NCBI GenBank assembly: GCA_965220345.1
Contig: OZ244822.1
Span: forward strand, 1,222,669 to 1,286,668
Length of the DNA: 64,000 bases
Direction of reading: 5' to 3'
Source: Candidatus Aldehydirespirator sp.
Lineage (GTDB): Bacteria > Actinomycetota > Acidimicrobiia > Acidimicrobiales > Aldehydirespiratoraceae
The notes under the pieces are model-generated. The model was not told the origin of the DNA. It did not search any database and saw only the letters and a program-made list of their open reading frames with translations. This document shows positions 8,646 to 16,176 of this stretch, one piece after another (the stretch's first letter is position 1; each line of letters starts with the position of its first letter). The position numbers and the translations under genes were made by a program.

Positions 8646-9392
8646 ATGGGCTTGCTTGAGGCTTGGGCGTTTCTTACCCGCCTTCCTGGAGGTCGGCATC
8701 CTAAGTCGGATCAAGAACTGGGTCGCAGCGTTGGCTGGTTCCCGCTGGTGGGTGCTGTAATCGGTGCGCTTTCAGGCGCTGTTTACTGGGGTCTGCACAG
8801 CCCGCTTGGTGCCGTGCTGGCGGCGGTGACCGCAGTTGCTGTAAGCATCATCGTTACTGGCGCTTTCCATGAGGACGGGCTTGCTGACACTGCTGATGCC
8901 CTGGGGGGCACCACCCGCGAGCAGCGCCTAGAGATAATGAAAGACTCACGGGTAGGCACTTTTGGTGTGCTTGCGCTAGTGGTATCGGTGCTAGTGCGGG
9001 TTTTTGCTGTGTCGTCGCTGAGCGCGGTTGACGGACTTCTCGCGTTGCTGCTCGCCCATATGGTCGGGCGTGCCGGGGCTGTGGCCGCGATGAGCGCAAC
9101 CCCAGCAGTTACCGGCAGCGGCTTAGGGCACAGTTATGCAGCGCATCGGCTGCCGCTGCCGAGTACGGTCGCAGTTGTAGCGGTATCAGCGTTGACTGTC
9201 AGCCTCGGGCCGACCGGTGCCGCAGCACTTGCGGTGGCGTTTCTGGCTGTGGTTGCGGTTTGGTGGAAAGCCAAGCGAGCTTTCGGAGGCATTACCGGCG
9301 ATGTCTTAGGCGCAGCCGAACAACTAGGCGAGATGTCCGTGCTAGTAGTAGCAGCCAGCTTAGTAAAAACTCAAGGCTGGCTCTGGCTCTAA
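8646..9392 (+). CDS. cobS: Adenosylcobinamide-GDP ribazoletransferase (cobalamin synthase)
   Basis: Polytopic membrane protein with FLTRLP, FHEDGLADTADALGG and GGITGDVLGA motifs. Confidence 0.8.
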   Translation: MGLLEAWAFLTRLPGGRHPKSDQELGRSVGWFPLVGAVIGALSGAVYWGLHSPLGAVLAAVTAVAVSIIVTGAFHEDGLADTADALGGTTREQRLEIMKDSRVGTFGVLALVVSVLVRVFAVSSLSAVDGLLALLLAHMVGRAGAVAAMSATPAVTGSGLGHSYAAHRLPLPSTVAVVAVSALTVSLGPTGAAALAVAFLAVVAVWWKAKRAFGGITGDVLGAAEQLGEMSVLVVAASLVKTQGWLWL

Positions 9393-9674
9393 ACACCTAG
9401 CTCGTCTGCAAGTTGACATTTAACCCCCCATCGGTCAAGAGGATTCGTCAATATTCGTGAGGTAGTCAGTGTCGTCTCAGACATACTCGAAACGCTTGTC
9501 ACGGTACCTCTAGCCTCCGACTAAAGATAAATCCCCGCCATTCCCGGCTAGCCAGGAAGGCGAGGAGCAATAGCAACAAGCTATCAGGCACACGACGTGA
9601 AAGAGCGGGCATTATGTCGGTTCGTCTATGTCTTGGCAGGGCTTGTAGGTCGGTCACGGTCTACGCTGTCGGTC

Positions 9675-10898
9675 ATGACCGACGACATGGGATACTTGCC
9701 GCGGCTGGAGAAGCGCAGCGAGTTCGTTGATTACTTGGAGGGTCATCCCGTGCCCGCTGCAGCCGATATGGAGCAGCCCGATGCAGGCCGCAAGTTGGTC
9801 AAGACCTACATGTTGGAAACCGCTGGTAGTTGCCAGAAGATGCCTGATCTGGCTAGCAGATTCGCAGGGAGTGTGAACCTTCATCGTGTTGACGACACGC
9901 TGTTTCGTGTTGAAGATGCCAAACACAACGGCCAAGTGGTTGGTTTGGTTGAGGAACTCGATGACAGGCATCCCGTCTTCTACACAAAAATGCCTGCTGA
10001 GCACAGTGACCGTTGGGTTCGTCAAACAGTGGACAGCAGTCCGTGGCTTGACCGGCTCTGGTTATCTTCGCCGATCCTGTTCGAGTTGTGGCGGCAGGTG
10101 CAGACCACAACGCCTTCTCATCGTTACGCGCGCCTAGGTTTCGAGCACGAAGCCCGCTACGAGCCGATTGATGGACTTGACACGGGTGCCGAAGATGTTG
10201 GCGCGGACGATACCAATGACGAGATGCTCAACGCTTTTGTGGAGCGCCGCCGCTCGGTGGTAACTCTTACCGAGCAACTTTCAGTGCTGAACGAGAAACT
10301 ACAGGGACTTGTTGATTCCTATGATCCGCTGCGATCACTGGTTCATTTGCAAATCCCCGCTGCTGGCCGTGGGGGCCATCGCTTCAGCTACGACGGACGT
10401 GCCACGAACCGGAGCGACTCCTTTGCCGACCATAGGGCGACAGTGCGGAAGGTGCTTGCTCTTTACCGCAGTGTCACCGAGCACGCCGAAGAGCGTCTAT
10501 GGGTAGATACCGCCGACGCTGGCCATGATGGCTACAAGATTCGCGGCACTCCGCTTGTCATTGATTTCGGTGAGCCACTGAGCGAGCCTCTGTTCAATCG
10601 TTTCGTTGAACTTGCGCTCAAGCGTCGGACGAGTCGCTTCCGTATCGGAGGTTTCGTTACACGTCGAGGTCCCACCAAGGTGCATGTAGTTGCCGTGGAC
10701 CGGCACCTATGGCAACCTTTTCTGCTAGAAGTCACAAGCCAGCACCTCTTAGCTGTGCTACCCCACGGCACCTGCGGGAACACAGTTCATCGGCTTGTAA
10801 CGAATGTGCAACGTGAGCTGGCTCCGACCGCGAAAGCCTGGCTCGGTAGTGAGCCTTACGATCAGGCGGTAGCCGAAGCCGCCAGCGTTGTTGCATGA
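9675..10898 (+). CDS. Hypothetical protein, first gene of an unassigned two-gene cassette
   Basis: Long ORF; the maximal ORF starts at GTG 9597 and ATG 9675 is preferred. I recognise no motif. Its stop overlaps the next start as ATGA. Confidence 0.55.
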   Translation: MTDDMGYLPRLEKRSEFVDYLEGHPVPAAADMEQPDAGRKLVKTYMLETAGSCQKMPDLASRFAGSVNLHRVDDTLFRVEDAKHNGQVVGLVEELDDRHPVFYTKMPAEHSDRWVRQTVDSSPWLDRLWLSSPILFELWRQVQTTTPSHRYARLGFEHEARYEPIDGLDTGAEDVGADDTNDEMLNAFVERRRSVVTLTEQLSVLNEKLQGLVDSYDPLRSLVHLQIPAAGRGGHRFSYDGRATNRSDSFADHRATVRKVLALYRSVTEHAEERLWVDTADAGHDGYKIRGTPLVIDFGEPLSEPLFNRFVELALKRRTSRFRIGGFVTRRGPTKVHVVAVDRHLWQPFLLEVTSQHLLAVLPHGTCGNTVHRLVTNVQRELAPTAKAWLGSEPYDQAVAEAASVVA

Positions 10899-11959
10899 CA
10901 TCTGACACTTTGCTCGTATCGGATACCGTATTCCAGCTCAACGTCTTGTTGTGGGCGCTAGAAGATCTCCCCAATAGCACCGATATCCAGCCGGTACTAC
11001 GCGAAGCCGGATATGAGTTGGAGTCGCTCGGCAGGCGACTGCTTGTTCCGTCTGGAGATAAGGCCGTCTCAGTTCTTCGCGAACTAGCGGGTACCGCCGA
11101 TCTTTCTCCGTGCCACCCAGACTTGTGCATTATCAATCAGAACCACCCGGTGACTCTGGTCGTTGAACTCAAATCTCACGGATTCGGCGGAAAATCATCG
11201 AACACGCGTCAGGCCGTGAAGCTGATTGTGGCTTCCCATGATCTGTCGGAGTCGTATGCCGAGACGCAGCCCCGACCGGGACATGTGGTTTACGCAACCG
11301 TCAAGCACGATGCAGCTCAGCTAGAGAAAACCCTGCAAGACTTGAGCGAGTCCATCAAGTCCAAAGGTGTGCCTGCAGCGCCAACAGACACGATTGGTAT
11401 CTCCATTGACGATGAGGGTGTGAGACTCTCAATTTCAAGCCTGTCCAATCTGCCCACACCAGCCCAAGAAGCACTTCAAGAACCTGTGGTTGTCTTGCAC
11501 CGTCGCGATGCCGATGACATACGGCCCCTCTACTTGATTCCCTGGATTCCCGGCCTACAGGCAAACCAAGATTCAGAACTTCAGGCGGACGGTTACAGGG
11601 AACTGACGGCACGCATCATCGTTCAGGCACTGGCCGTCGTGGGGCAAGCCAGTGCTCCAACGACTCTAGAAATCACTGGGGCAACAATGCTTAGTCGGGC
11701 AACTTTCGGAGTATTTGACCGATGGCTGGACACAGATCGACAAAAGTTCTCTGAGGCGGCTATAGGTGTGCTGACCAAGACCTTGACGAGTCTCAGCGGC
11801 TTTCAGAAGAAGAGCAGAGATGTCGTCTCGCTGTCGTTCTCAAGCCAAGAAGAACAAGCAGAGGTAATCAAACTTCTAGAACAGGTCAGTCCAGCCGATA
11901 CAAGCACAAACATCCAAGCTGCGGTCAACGCTCCACAGAAGCTCTTTGATGACTACTGA
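10895..11959 (+). CDS. Hypothetical protein with a PD-(D/E)xK nuclease-like motif
   Basis: HPDLCIINQNHPVTLVVELKSHGF (D76, E91, K93; nt 11120-11173) fits PD...(D/E)xK spacing. It is translationally coupled to the upstream ORF. The remaining ~250 aa are unrecognised. Confidence 0.55.
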   Translation: MTSDTLLVSDTVFQLNVLLWALEDLPNSTDIQPVLREAGYELESLGRRLLVPSGDKAVSVLRELAGTADLSPCHPDLCIINQNHPVTLVVELKSHGFGGKSSNTRQAVKLIVASHDLSESYAETQPRPGHVVYATVKHDAAQLEKTLQDLSESIKSKGVPAAPTDTIGISIDDEGVRLSISSLSNLPTPAQEALQEPVVVLHRRDADDIRPLYLIPWIPGLQANQDSELQADGYRELTARIIVQALAVVGQASAPTTLEITGATMLSRATFGVFDRWLDTDRQKFSEAAIGVLTKTLTSLSGFQKKSRDVVSLSFSSQEEQAEVIKLLEQVSPADTSTNIQAAVNAPQKLFDDY

Positions 11960-12114
11960 ATCTTGAGCACGGCTCTCAAGTAAATCTGTTCTGTGCTTTG
12001 CTCCAGCGAAGTCGACAGAGTTGATGTCGTGAAGGGGAAAGCGGAGGTGTCAGCTTGCGGTGTGGTTGGGGCGGCTAGTCTCGTGGTGGCAGGCTCAAAT
12101 ACTGGGAGGTAGCG

Positions 12115-12897
12115 ATGCGTAGCCATGAAATCGACTATCGGATTTACGGCGACGATATGCAATTCGTCGAAGTGGAGCTTGACCCTGGTGAGGTGGTCGT
12201 AGCTGAAGCTGGTGCCATGATGTATATGGAGCAGGGCATCACCTTCGAAGCCAAGATGGGTGACGGCTCTGATCCTGGTCAAGGCACTTGGGGCAAGCTG
12301 AAGTCGGCCGCCAAACGGGGGATCACTGGTGAGGGCTTGTTTATGACGCATTTCCGTAACAGCGTCCCGCAAGGCAAGCAAACGGTGGCCATGGCTGCGC
12401 CTTACCCTGGCAAAATTCTGCCGGTAGACCTCACCGAGGTTGGTGGCAATCTGCTGGCACAAAAGGACGCTTTCTTGTGCGCTGCATCAGGCACGAAGCT
12501 TGACATTGCTTTCAATCGCAAGTTCGGCACTGGGATCTTCGGCGGGGAAGGCTTCATCCTGCAATCAATATCAGGCGATGGGATGGCTTTTTTGCACGCT
12601 GGCGGCACCATCATCGAAAAGCAGCTACAAGGCGAGACTCTGCGCATAGACACAGGCTGCATCGTGGCTTTCCAGCCGCAGATCCAGTATTCCATTGAAC
12701 GTGCTGGCAACCTCAAGTCGATGGTGTTCGGCGGTGAAGGACTCTTCTTGGCGACACTCACTGGCGTAGGTCGGGTGTGGCTGCAGTCGCTTCCGTTTAA
12801 TCGAATCGCTGATCGGGTGCTCGCCAACCTGACACCGGGCGGCTCACAAGGCGAAGGCTCAATAGCGGGCGGCCTTTCCTCAATCTTCTCGCGCTGA
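12115..12897 (+). CDS. AIM24/TIGR00266-family protein (DUF124)
   Basis: The N-terminus [34 protein letters not shown] and later [22 protein letters not shown] are characteristic of this family. Confidence 0.8.
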
Positions 12898-13797: not shown

Positions 13798-14067
13798 ATG
13801 GCTACAAGTAACAGGTTACGAAGCCAGCATCGGCGAACGCTGCAGAGGATGCGAGCTACACCTACTCCATCTGACATTCGATGGTTTGAAGTTGTTTCAC
13901 TTTTGAGGGCTCTTGGAGTGAGTCTGGTTGAGCGTAAGGGGTCTAGGGTGCAGTTGGTCAAAGGCAATGACACAATGGTTGTGCATCGGCCACATCCTAG
14001 ACCGGCAGTTAGCCGTGATACAATTCGAGACATCACAAAATTCATAGGTATGATGGAGGAAAACTGA
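13798..14067 (+). CDS. hicA: Type II toxin HicA family
   Basis: 89 aa. The SLLRALGVSLVERKGSRVQLVKGNDTMVVHRPHP pattern matches the HicA/YcfA fold. It abuts hicB with a 1-nt overlap. Confidence 0.75.
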   Translation: MATSNRLRSQHRRTLQRMRATPTPSDIRWFEVVSLLRALGVSLVERKGSRVQLVKGNDTMVVHRPHPRPAVSRDTIRDITKFIGMMEEN

Positions 14068-14303
14068 TGTTGGAGTACAAGGGGTATGTGGGAGAGGTCG
14101 TACATGACGTTAAATCTGGGGTGTTGCACGCCTCGGTCATCAACAGCGGTCCCTATCCTGTTGCGACTGCTGAGTCGCTTGATGAATCAGGCATCAGCAG
14201 AGAGTTCCAAATTTCGATAGATGTATATCTTGAAGGCTGTGCAGAGCTTGGCATTGATCCTGTCGTCCCCTCGGATATGCCAATGAAGACAAGTGCGACT
14301 TGA
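14067..14303 (+). CDS. hicB: Type II antitoxin HicB family
   Basis: Has the MLEYKGYVGEVVHD...G...F...IDVYLEGCAELGIDP pattern typical of HicB N-terminal domains. Confidence 0.75.
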   Translation: MLEYKGYVGEVVHDVKSGVLHASVINSGPYPVATAESLDESGISREFQISIDVYLEGCAELGIDPVVPSDMPMKTSAT

Positions 14304-14348
14304 TCGGACCGGGTACCGCCGAGCCGTGATGCCCACAACATAAGTGGG

Positions 14349-15338
14349 TTATGGGATTAGCAGTATCTTGCCTGCGAGTGTGCGGCCTTGCAGCAGGCGA
14401 TGAGCTTCGGGTGCTTCCGCCAGTGGCAAGCGAGCCGCGATCCTCACATCAAGGCGACCCTCAACAATCCAGGAGAACATCTCAGCGGCGCGCGACTCAA
14501 GCTCTTCACGGCTAGCAATAAAGTCCCAGAGTTTCGGTCGGGTCAGCCATAAAGACTTGCCCATCAGATGCAACGGAGCTTTCGGTTCAACAGCGCCTGA
14601 AGCATTACCGAAAGTCACCATGGCACCGCGCAGGCGCAGCAACTTGAGGCTGTCGTCATAGACGGCTGCACCCACCCCGTCATACACCACGTCAATAGCA
14701 TCGGTCCCGACCGCAGCTTCAACTCCGGCCACCAGGTCAGTGGTTGTGTAATTGACAACATGGTCAGCACCAGCGCCTCGAGCCAACTCAACTTTGGCAT
14801 CGGAACCGACCGCAGCCACCACTTCGGCACCACGGATTTTGGCCATCTGCACGATCAAGCGCCCCGTGCCGCCAGCACCGGCATGCACTAGGCACCGGTC
14901 ACCGGGCTTTAACGGCGGGCAGTCAGTCACCAGATAATGGGCGGTGAGACCTTGCACGCCGACCGCAGCCGCGGTTTCGAGATCCACCCCGTCGGGAACC
15001 TTGTATGCCACCGCAGCGTTCACCGTCACCCGCTGCGCGTATGAGCCCGAAGCACCAGCCCACCCCACACGGTCACCAGGCTCAAAGCCGCTAACACCCG
15101 CGCCGACTTGCAGCACTGTGCCAGCGCCTTCCTGACCGAGCACCAGCGGCAGTGCCATGTCATATAAGCCCGAGCGGTGATAAGTATCGATGAAGTTGAC
15201 CCCAGCGGCAGCTACCTGCACTGTGATCTGGCCTTCAGCTGGCATTGGGTCGTCAAGTGGCACAAGCCGCATCACTTCAGGATCACCAGGCTCGGTGATC
15301 TGTATCCCTGTGTTGGTTGTGTCTAAGTCTTCAATCAT
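14349..15338 (-). CDS. qor: NADPH:quinone oxidoreductase (zinc-type alcohol dehydrogenase superfamily)
   Basis: Medium-chain dehydrogenase/reductase fold with VHAGAGGTGRL nucleotide-binding loop and the GK(I/L)L(L/I)IP C-terminus. Confidence 0.85.
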   Translation of the reverse strand: MIEDLDTTNTGIQITEPGDPEVMRLVPLDDPMPAEGQITVQVAAAGVNFIDTYHRSGLYDMALPLVLGQEGAGTVLQVGAGVSGFEPGDRVGWAGASGSYAQRVTVNAAVAYKVPDGVDLETAAAVGVQGLTAHYLVTDCPPLKPGDRCLVHAGAGGTGRLIVQMAKIRGAEVVAAVGSDAKVELARGAGADHVVNYTTTDLVAGVEAAVGTDAIDVVYDGVGAAVYDDSLKLLRLRGAMVTFGNASGAVEPKAPLHLMGKSLWLTRPKLWDFIASREELESRAAEMFSWIVEGRLDVRIAARLPLAEAPEAHRLLQGRTLAGKILLIP

Positions 15339-15805
15339 GGCGACCTTTCTTGTGACTCTTCTGACTTCGCTGGCTCTGATGGCTCTTCTGATCCTTGTGG
15401 CTTAGCGGAGGCAACCCCAGGCGAAACAACGCTGATGCCGTGAGCTCTTGCCGATGACATCAGCCGCTCATCGTAGGTGACGACACCCTCAAGGTCGGCA
15501 CCGAGTTCCATCGCTGCTGCCAGATGAAGAGCATCAAGAGTGCTCAGTATCACTGGTTCCAGCATCGCAGCCCTCTCGAACACACTGGAGCGCAGATCAA
15601 GTATATGGGTTCGTTCAAACAGCTTTGCGGCTTTGTCGGCGCGCTCGGGATCATGTCGTCGCACAGTTCTGAGCAGCTCGGTGCGGGTCAAATCGCTGGA
15701 AAAGAGATTGCCGTCCTGGTTACGCGCGAAAGCCAGCATCGCTTCGGTTTCGGCCTCATGCACGATCAACTTCACTGCTGCCGATGTCTCAAGATAGAAG
15801 ACCAT
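15335..15805 (-). CDS. vapC: Type II toxin VapC (PIN domain)
   Basis: The true start is MVFYLETSAAVKLI at 15805 (TGATG overlap with the antitoxin stop). PIN acidic residues are present (D/E in LETS, SSDLTRTE, TLDALHLA, TYDERL). The 251-aa ORF in the track is an artefactual 5' extension. Confidence 0.8.
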   Translation of the reverse strand: MVFYLETSAAVKLIVHEAETEAMLAFARNQDGNLFSSDLTRTELLRTVRRHDPERADKAAKLFERTHILDLRSSVFERAAMLEPVILSTLDALHLAAAMELGADLEGVVTYDERLMSSARAHGISVVSPGVASAKPQGSEEPSEPAKSEESQERSP

Positions 15806-16071
15806 CAGTAACGCTCGGCTGAGCGCATTTCTTGAAGAGTCTCTGAAAGAGGCTTGTCGTGAGGCTCTGGAGGTTGGAAGCTCGCAAATGACAGAGTGGC
15901 TGATCGAAGCCGTCCCGATGTCTTCAGTTCCTCGACTTTTGAGCCGGGTATGGGGCTCAGCAGCGCAGCCGGTCGACCCCGGTCGGTTACAACGATCGTT
16001 TCGCCATGTTGCACACGAGCCACGACGGCTGAAGCGTTTTGCTTTAGTTCGCGGATACCAACCCTGTTCAT
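15805..16071 (-). CDS. Type II antitoxin Phd/YefM family
   Basis: MNRVGIRELKQNASAVVARVQHGETIVVTDRGRPAALLSPI is a canonical Phd/YefM N-terminal domain. Confidence 0.8.
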   Translation of the reverse strand: MNRVGIRELKQNASAVVARVQHGETIVVTDRGRPAALLSPIPGSKVEELKTSGRLRSATLSFASFQPPEPHDKPLSETLQEMRSAERY

Positions 16072-16176
16072 GTTCTACACAATAGCACAAAGAAGTAAGC
16101 GGCTCCTTTAGAGGGTCGGATCAGGTGACGCAAACTTGGATTCTGATCATTTCAGGGCTGCGGGACCCAGAAGCGC

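Follow-up and report, generated by a model that had tools for sequence, protein, structure and literature searches.

Between cobS and an AIM24-family gene of Candidatus Aldehydirespirator sp.: a candidate orphaned copy of an undescribed two-protein nuclease module

What is a pair of overlapping genes doing between cobS, the last gene of a B12 salvage operon, and an AIM24-family gene in the genome of Candidatus Aldehydirespirator sp.? The question was addressed in a window of 64 kb (contig OZ244822.1, positions 1,222,669–1,286,668), whose numbering is used for all coordinates below. The two genes are termed A, an MJECL33-family gene at 9675–10898, and B, a nuclease-like gene at 10895–11959; G-numbers denote genomes and L-numbers denote loci used for comparison. 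The initial annotation of this DNA had described an orphan pair of a large unknown protein and a nuclease-fold protein, a combination typical of defence or mobile-element modules. [quoted passage not shown] With somewhat better than even confidence, we consider the pair to be the orphaned representative of a two-protein nuclease module not described before, in which A would sense or license and B would cut. Judging from sequence, defence against incoming DNA is its most likely function, and the module is a credible immunity candidate. Its features are as follows.

9675–10898, plus strand: gene A, MJECL33 family (PF25924), 407 aa
10761–10811, plus strand: residues 363–379 of A, signature LPxGTCGNTxHRLVxNxQ, from an alignment of 25 sequences
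10895–10898, plus strand: ATGA overlap of the stop of A and the start of B, 4 bases, translational coupling
10895–11959, plus strand: gene B, 354 aa, N-terminal half of predicted PD-(D/E)xK type
11117–11212, plus strand: putative active site of B, with P75-D76 at 11117–11122, E91 at 11165–11167, K93 at 11171–11173 and Q106 at 11210–11212

The first protein, to which the initial annotation could assign no family, is assignable to PF25924 ('MJECL33'), a Pfam family of unknown function. The assignment rests on the precomputed annotation of its homologs, since 120 of 120 among the matches listed carry PF25924, and on an hhalign comparison of the A family profile with MJECL33 (97.3% probability, E 2.5e-11, 354 columns). 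Searches of A and B against local Pfam and NCBIfam gave no family match, and the sole match in PHROGs was phrog_22469, of unknown function, in the C-terminal part of A. On profile evidence, A is a full-length homolog of MJECL33. Mean column identity is 69% among 45 A sequences from Acidimicrobiia. An alignment of 25 sequences that span archaea, plasmids of Bacillus, and eight phyla of bacteria, MJECL33 included, has 23 invariant residues; the polar invariants include R14, K43, E48, R98, D126, W129, T244, D342, H344, C367, N369, R373, and Q379. Recognizable motifs are GRGGH, TNRSDSFxDHR, DxHLWQP, and LPxGTCGNTxHRLVxNxQ. The C-terminal DxH ... LPxGxCGNTxxRLxxNxQ signature of PF25924 is thus present in A, and its invariants P363, G365, C367, G368, N369, R373, and Q379 extend from archaea to Acidimicrobiia.

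The AlphaFold2 model of A (predicted local distance difference test, pLDDT, 80.5; predicted template-modelling score, pTM, 0.82) consists of alpha/beta modules in series, residues 167–186 forming an acidic, disordered linker. Weak Foldseek neighbours were CENP-L (probability 0.92, TM about 0.25), which we take to be linked to RdgC, the N-terminal domains of RnlA, and TATA-binding proteins (TBPs) of giant viruses; the whole chain gave nothing at E < 1e-3 against PDB and BFVD. The modules modelled in A are probably TBP-like, and no enzyme fold was recognized among them. Sequence and profile searches of A and B against PDB chains returned only designed repeat proteins and DksA, the latter in a helical region of B.

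In the second protein, the segment HPDLCII...LVVELKS had been noted for D76, E91, and K93, spaced as in the catalytic core of restriction endonucleases. The motif is present and is conserved in B homologs down to 21% identity. Namely, 42 close homologs all share P75, D76, E91, K93, Q106, and K109, while in 43 members reaching down to that identity Q14, N16, E91, K93, and Q106 are invariant and D76 is conserved in at least 90%. Conservation of this kind far exceeds a chance motif match, and D76, E91, and K93 supply the conserved D...(D/E)xK residues of the PD-(D/E)xK superfamily. An exhaustive profile search defined a B family of 390 clusters at 50% identity, nearly all of 340–370 aa, and in none of these clusters was B fused to another domain. 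No family for B was found in Pfam, NCBIfam, PADLOC, or PHROGs.

Structure prediction was the point at which the proposed nuclease fold could have failed. The AlphaFold2 model of B has a pLDDT of 90.5 overall and above 90 in the motif region, where it comprises helix 55–65, strands 77–81 and 84–92, helix 103–114, and strand 129–136. D76 lies at the start of strand 77–81, E91-x-K93 at the end of strand 84–92, and Q106 on helix 103–114, all fittingly placed; as modelled, this helix-strand-strand-helix-strand unit would fit the canonical alpha-beta-beta-beta-alpha-beta core of restriction endonucleases, in which D begins strand 2 and ExK lies in strand 3. Whole-chain Foldseek gave weak partial matches to BstEII (0.28), AF1548 (0.33), Bax1, and Cdn1. 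Among the 43 divergent B members, sub-threshold Pfam matches were to Hjc in four (best E 0.0022), HSDR_N_2 in three (0.0048), VRR_NUC in one, and the Card1 endonuclease in one, and these recurring matches all belong to the PD-(D/E)xK fold class. The sensitive searches that had been suggested for both proteins placed A in PF25924 and linked divergent B members, below threshold, to PD-(D/E)xK families only; the whole-chain Foldseek searches yielded nothing at E < 1e-3. Taking motif, modelled topology, and sub-threshold profile matches together, a nuclease fold of B is likely but not proven. The C-terminal half of B (about 170 residues) has no assigned fold; it carries the motif PLYxIPWxPG at residues 211–220 and W277.

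A similar arrangement occurs on the large extrachromosomal element of Methanocaldococcus jannaschii, where the next gene after MJECL33, and overlapping it, is MJECL32 (438 aa, PF27326). A shares with MJECL33 full-length homology, including the GxCGNTxxRLxxNxQ motif, and the gene order is the same, with a nuclease gene overlapping downstream. However, B has 354 aa against the 438 aa of MJECL32, and the likeness of the two is restricted to the N-terminal core: the profile comparison reached 73% probability over 105 of about 350–450 columns, and the common core consists of the LN helix, GY, PD, ECK, and Q. PF27326 was found in none of 104 close B homologs, whereas all four MJECL32 homologs have it. 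Membership of B in PF27326 was rejected for these reasons. A tblastn search with B against plasmids gave no match, although profile comparison recovered the partner of A on the Bacillus cereus plasmid pBFR_2 (342 aa) as a full-length member of the B family (99.7% probability). From the core-only likeness to MJECL32 and the full-length match to the pBFR_2 protein, B is read as a second, mainly bacterial, uncatalogued branch of nuclease partners for MJECL33-type proteins. Both Pfam families, PF25924 and PF27326, are of unknown function. On megaplasmids of Bacillus and Metabacillus, a long gene annotated as 'PemK/MazF family toxin' (about 240 aa; L110 5049–5786, L111 5087–5803) stands about 200 bp upstream of A-B on the same strand and may be a lineage-specific third component.

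The initial annotation had proposed to follow the co-occurrence and synteny of the pair and its proximity to defence genes. For this, 79 genome loci with an A homolog were examined; neighbourhood counts refer to 78 of these and the integrity of A and B to 72 informative loci. Genes of R-M and DISARM systems were called within 10 kb using hidden Markov models seeded from annotated neighbours. B directly follows A, usually with an overlap, in Acidimicrobiia, Bacillota, Acidobacteria, Nitrospirae, Armatimonadetes, Dehalococcoidia, Elusimicrobia, Stahlbacteria, and the candidate phyla radiation (CPR), as well as on Bacillus megaplasmids and the M. jannaschii element, so that adjacency was found in every phylum sampled. 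The 4-base overlap noted in the window was confirmed and recurs in most related loci. All seven loci that were reached through B have A beside it, and B is adjacent to A in 63 of the 72 informative loci.

Genes of R-M or DISARM systems occur within 10 kb of A-B in 38 of the 78 loci. Genes of the N6-adenine methyltransferase (MTase) type lie near 27 of the 78 (35%); for comparison, 25 genomes of the genus (89 Mb) gave 134 matches, which amounts to about 3% per 21-kb window. The pair takes several positions relative to these genes.

N6_N4 MTase, A, B, ResIII/endonuclease (mod-A-B-res): L096
ResIII, A, B, N6_N4 MTase (res-A-B-mod): L029, L107
MTase, A, B: L099, L100, L026
IIG-like MTase, HsdS, A, B: L108, L106
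HsdR, YgjP, A, B: L084, L104, L069
A, B, SNF2 helicase: L065, L057

At L029 (3758–11161), the block of ResIII helicase, A, B, and N6_N4 MTase lies between two partial pyrophosphatase ORFs (open reading frames; PF00719; 125 and 111 aa) and looks as though it had been inserted into a pyrophosphatase gene. Other A-B loci adjoin TIR, Mrr, ParE/Phd, Schlafen/AlbA, insertion sequence (IS), and DUF222-HNH genes, and the copy on a B. cereus plasmid adjoins a Hachiman system. The gene for DUF222 plus an HNH endonuclease (428–457 aa) stands directly beside the pair in seven Acidimicrobiia loci, as gene -1 to A in L063, L067, L068, L071, L074, and L079 and at +1 in L037; it may be a mobile, homing-type companion.

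The closest relatives of the window pair, with A 81–88% identical to that of the window, all share one operon order: drmD, drmMI, a variable slot, A, B, drmA, drmB, and drmC. In these DISARM operons, known from six or more genomes, A-B lies 64–110 bp upstream of drmA. In L035, the PADLOC models confirmed DrmD, DrmMI, DrmA, DrmB, and DrmC at E values ranging between 0 and 5e-70, and two of the operons have a truncated B (L030, L081). ARMADA was considered as an explanation of the DISARM-like context and was rejected, because its four proteins include nothing resembling A or B. The slot between drmMI and A (L023/L030, L034, L081) collects ThsB-like TIR genes and an M78 peptidase with a small partner. 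In G005, the minus strand of L032 (14345–15400) encodes a protein of 351 aa that is distantly paralogous to the C-terminal half of A (33% identity over residues 234–381). Its gene lies 3 kb away from A-B, downstream of an operon for N6-MTase and HsdS, and a paralog like it exists in G012. The 443-aa ORF that adjoins the G005 paralog was tried as its nuclease partner and dismissed, being unrelated to B and MJECL32.

The flanks of the window pair, cobS and AIM24, had been named correctly and were confirmed by Pfam. The region around the cassette is laid out as follows.

8646–9392, plus strand: cobS, left flank, last gene of the B12 salvage operon (Pfam CobS, PF02654, E 5.8e-53), outside the module
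9393–9674, plus strand: non-coding leader, 282 bp, compared by blastn against G013, G007, and G011
9524–9592, plus strand: GC-rich hairpin element within the cobS-A leader
11960–12071, plus strand: spacer 3' of B; homology to empty sites restarts at about 12072–12076
12115–12897, plus strand: AIM24-family gene, right flank (Pfam PF01987, E 1.6e-72), outside the module

Comparison of this locus in relatives, as had been advised, found cobS and AIM24 adjacent in eight genomes of the same genus, with a gap of about 70–450 bp and nothing between them. Relative to these empty sites, homology stops just past the cobS stop codon and restarts at about 12072–12076, so that A-B is an insertion. The closest relative, G013, has no A-B, yet it shares the first 200 bp of the leader (9393–9592), which is therefore older than the cassette or independent of it. 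At the A-B site G013 carries a small, unrelated insert together with 233 bp of filler, likewise unrelated, which sets the cassette limits at about 9593–12071. The insert (L016, G013:C29:900-3800) spans about 585 bp between cobS and AIM24 and contains an ORF on the opposite strand; with a different insert at the same place, the cobS-AIM24 gap looks like a recurrent insertion spot. Terminal repeats, a target duplication, a recombinase gene, and cassette remnants were sought at the junctions and in the G013 filler, and none was found.

Contigs of 21–33 kb from three independent studies cover cobS-A-B-AIM24 at 96–100% identity, and the insertion is therefore genuine and fixed in the species. A occurs in six of 25 genomes of the genus, a seventh holding only a distant paralog, and in none of the 16 other families of the order. 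This distribution is not that of a conserved core gene with a metabolic assignment, the outcome that would have spoken against an accessory module. The cassette is an accessory insertion and, in the reading favoured here, a horizontally acquired stand-alone copy of a conserved two-gene module. Its GC content is slightly lower (about 0.52–0.56) than that of the cob genes (about 0.60).

The hairpin at 9524–9592 reads TCCCCGCC ATTCCCGGC .. GCCAGGAA GGCGAGGA. It is single-copy in the window genome and has partial copies elsewhere in G005, G006, and G007 at 88–89% identity; it may be a repetitive extragenic palindromic (REP)-like element or a terminator. As a part of the cassette it was ruled out, since G013 has the hairpin and no A-B, the pairs of G005 and G002 have no hairpin, and the element is single-copy here. 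A search of the leader for a sigma-70 promoter gave no convincing candidate.

The leader is longer than the roughly 200 bp initially given, although its non-coding character stands, because the start of A had been placed too far upstream. The two ORFs (9597–10898 and 10895–11959, both on the plus strand) do exist, and the first encodes 433 aa if read from GTG 9597. However, 1-base indels between strains occur at 9633–9650, within the putative N-terminal extension, with zero indels across 9675–11959, and A homologs are 402–410 aa long with an N-terminus M-x-T-D-x-G-Y-L-P that matches ATG 9675. GTG 9597 was rejected as the start on these two grounds; by comparison with homologs the true start is almost certainly ATG 9675, giving a protein of 407 aa. 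One further strain indel lies in the leader at 9434. A HicA-like ORF is present 2–4 kb downstream of the cassette (13798–16090), as is a PIN/VapC-like ORF that has a small antitoxin-like ORF upstream of it; the cassette thus borders a loose neighbourhood of defence and toxin-antitoxin genes.

Strain variation adds a view of the pair in nature. Three haplotypes were recognized in the window species: an intact pair (runs X1–X5), a B-null form (X6), and an A-null form (X7–X10). The two null forms are due to single substitutions.

10023, plus strand: polymorphic site C to T, A Q117* (CAA to TAA), runs X7–X10
11720, plus strand: polymorphic site C to T, B R276* (CGA to TGA), run X6

C11720T was read at a depth of 69 in run X6 (97.7% identity), and C10023T at depths of 27–127 in X7–X10 (96.2% identity; four runs from two samples). 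In X7–X10, B retains every conserved residue. Between strains, pN/pS is 0.09–0.20 for A and 0.37–0.41 for B. A is thus under strong purifying selection in the solo lineage. The solo pair as a whole is dispensable in nature, and in part of the population of this species its inactivation is under way; this fits fast-turnover defence genes and, equally well, an orphaned accessory. Replacements in B cluster in residues 47–70, 264–265, and 298–304. At the nucleotide level, strain differences in B cluster at 11034–11116 (residues 47–74), 11684–11692, and 11783–11804, and X6 and X7 have 23 substitutions within 83 bp of B in common; the clustering suggests recombination tracts or hypervariable surface segments.

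Loss of B is also common among relatives. Of the 72 loci with full-length A, 52 have an intact B, 11 have a B with a truncation, an internal deletion, or a frameshift, and nine have none; B is thus lost or broken beside an intact A in 20. Since A-null strains keep B, and A occurs without an intact B in these 20 loci, neither protein is needed to neutralize the other, which argues against toxin-antitoxin (TA) or addiction logic. A type II TA module was ruled out accordingly, and neither protein appears to be toxic alone.

A-B also differs from the defence systems that it most resembles. Class 1 DISARM is DNA-targeting and methylation-associated, as A-B appears to be, and members of the window subfamily are embedded in bona fide DISARM operons directly upstream of drmA. 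However, A and B match no Drm model, some operons carry a broken B, and A-B is found on its own as well as with R-M systems of types I, IIG, and III. The full set of drmA, drmB, drmC, drmD, and drmMI surrounds the pair in L035; it is missing around the window cassette, which was therefore not classified as class 1 DISARM. Type I and III R-M systems resemble A-B in the predicted PD-(D/E)xK core of B, and in several phyla A-B is nested between mod and res or follows hsdS or hsdR. Unlike these systems, the cassette has no MTase, helicase, or specificity subunit, and the window genome has no MTase less than 500 kb from it; as an R-M system it was rejected for want of a cognate MTase within the cassette, many relatives having one adjacent. 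The anticodon nuclease PrrC, a single ATPase-RNase, sits inside the EcoprrI type I operon. Like PrrC, A-B may be an extra effector within an R-M operon, activated on challenge of that system, although the analogy is speculative, there is no sequence or fold relation, and A-B would be a two-protein module of DNA-nuclease type. Hachiman HamA/HamB and McrBC likewise combine a sensor or motor partner with a PD-(D/E)xK nuclease, but NTPase and helicase motifs are absent from A, whose probably TBP-like architecture does not resemble that of HamB or McrB. A-B is thus not DISARM, not R-M, and not TA, and it matches no PADLOC model.

In the mechanism that we infer, nuclease activity, complex formation, and a division of labour between A and B would together produce a defence phenotype. 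A, through its TBP-like nucleic-acid-binding modules and an invariant Asp/His/Cys/Asn/Arg pocket, would recognize either some trait of foreign DNA or a signal given by the neighbouring R-M or DISARM machinery. It would then recruit or license B, and B would cut DNA through a metal site formed by D76, E91, and K93. Translational coupling and universal adjacency imply a stoichiometric A-B complex. The association with four methylation-based systems suggests that the module exploits their self-marking or backs them up, while the many intact solo pairs suggest that A-B can also act alone.

Several results weigh against this proposal. The whole chain of B found no nuclease in PDB at E < 1e-3 by Foldseek, and neither A nor B matched a system model of PADLOC-DB v2.0.0 at E up to 1. 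The literature search found no paper on MJECL33, MJECL32, PF25924, PF27326, or phrog_22469. The small metatranscriptomes at hand contained none of the sequence. With the models used, about half of the loci yielded no R-M or DISARM gene; roughly half are solo A-B pairs among metabolic genes, and two of the three haplotypes of the window species carry a nonsense mutation. Finally, the window genome has no DrmA homolog, and its five N6-MTase matches, as well as the nearest PF02384 match, all lie more than 500 kb from the cassette. The window pair is therefore an orphaned copy of a pair that is embedded in DISARM in its nearest relatives, and this copy may not work alone.

It is possible, if unlikely, that A is no mere adaptor but a novel DNA-reading or DNA-modifying enzyme, its invariant pocket set on a TBP-like scaffold, that gives B its self/non-self discrimination; A-B would then be a new kind of portable restriction module, fitting interchangeably into DISARM and into R-M systems of types I, IIG, and III. 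To our knowledge, DrmC does not appear to account for DNA cleavage by DISARM; as such a portable module, A-B would supply the DNA-cleaving step of class 1 DISARM.

Alternatively, A and B could be non-autonomous subunits of DISARM or R-M systems, such as a plug-in endonuclease for DrmAB, and the window copy, cut off from its partners, a functionless remnant that is heading for loss. The place of all closest relatives immediately before drmA, the lack of drmA in the window genome, the independent nonsense alleles of A and B within one species, and the pN/pS of 0.37–0.41 for B would all fit. Yet the partner system varies from locus to locus (types I, IIG, and III, DISARM, SNF2), which suits an autonomous module better, and intact pairs with no R-M genes beside them are known from many phyla and from plasmids of Bacillus (L083, L087, L090–L094, L098, L101–L103). 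DISARM operons also persist with a truncated B, and A is strongly constrained by purifying selection in the solo lineage. We regard this explanation as doubtful.

Distinctly unlikely, in our view, is a selfish mobile or addiction element, TA-like or hitchhiking with R-M systems, that persists without benefit to the host. Such an element could account for the patchy distribution, the precisely delimited cassette, its presence at many unrelated chromosomal sites, apparently including the pyrophosphatase gene of L029, the IS elements and DUF222-HNH genes that are often adjacent, and the frequent loss of the nuclease B. However, neither a transposase or integrase nor a terminal inverted repeat or target duplication is present at the junctions, and both proteins are far larger than typical TA components. 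The truncation of A at codon 117 beside an apparently intact B, together with the 20 of 72 loci in which A lacks an intact B, indicates that neither gene needs the other for the viability of the host. A role in DNA repair or recombination, for example as an RdgC-like DNA binder with a resolvase-like nuclease, is very improbable: the weak fold likeness of A to CENP-L and TBP-like modules, the sub-threshold matches of B to the Holliday-junction resolvase Hjc, and one locus adjoining uvrC (L083) point that way, but most genomes of the genus lack the pair, as do all other sampled families of the order, natural strains can do without it, and its neighbours are overwhelmingly R-M or DISARM genes and not repair genes.

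The two-protein nuclease module thus remains the explanation that we favour. What is new here is the separate B family, the position of the pair upstream of drmA, the quantified association with R-M systems, the preferential loss of B, and the natural null alleles of each gene. If functional, A-B would be an undescribed two-protein nuclease system that extends from archaea to at least nine bacterial phyla and in which A has no characterized relative. Its nesting in four kinds of methylation-based immunity would then suggest a shared accessory role that has been missed by defence catalogues, and its position upstream of drmA makes it a candidate for how some DISARM systems destroy DNA. For the sponge symbiont studied here, the naturally occurring A-null and B-null strains narrow the mechanism, as they indicate that neither protein is toxic alone.

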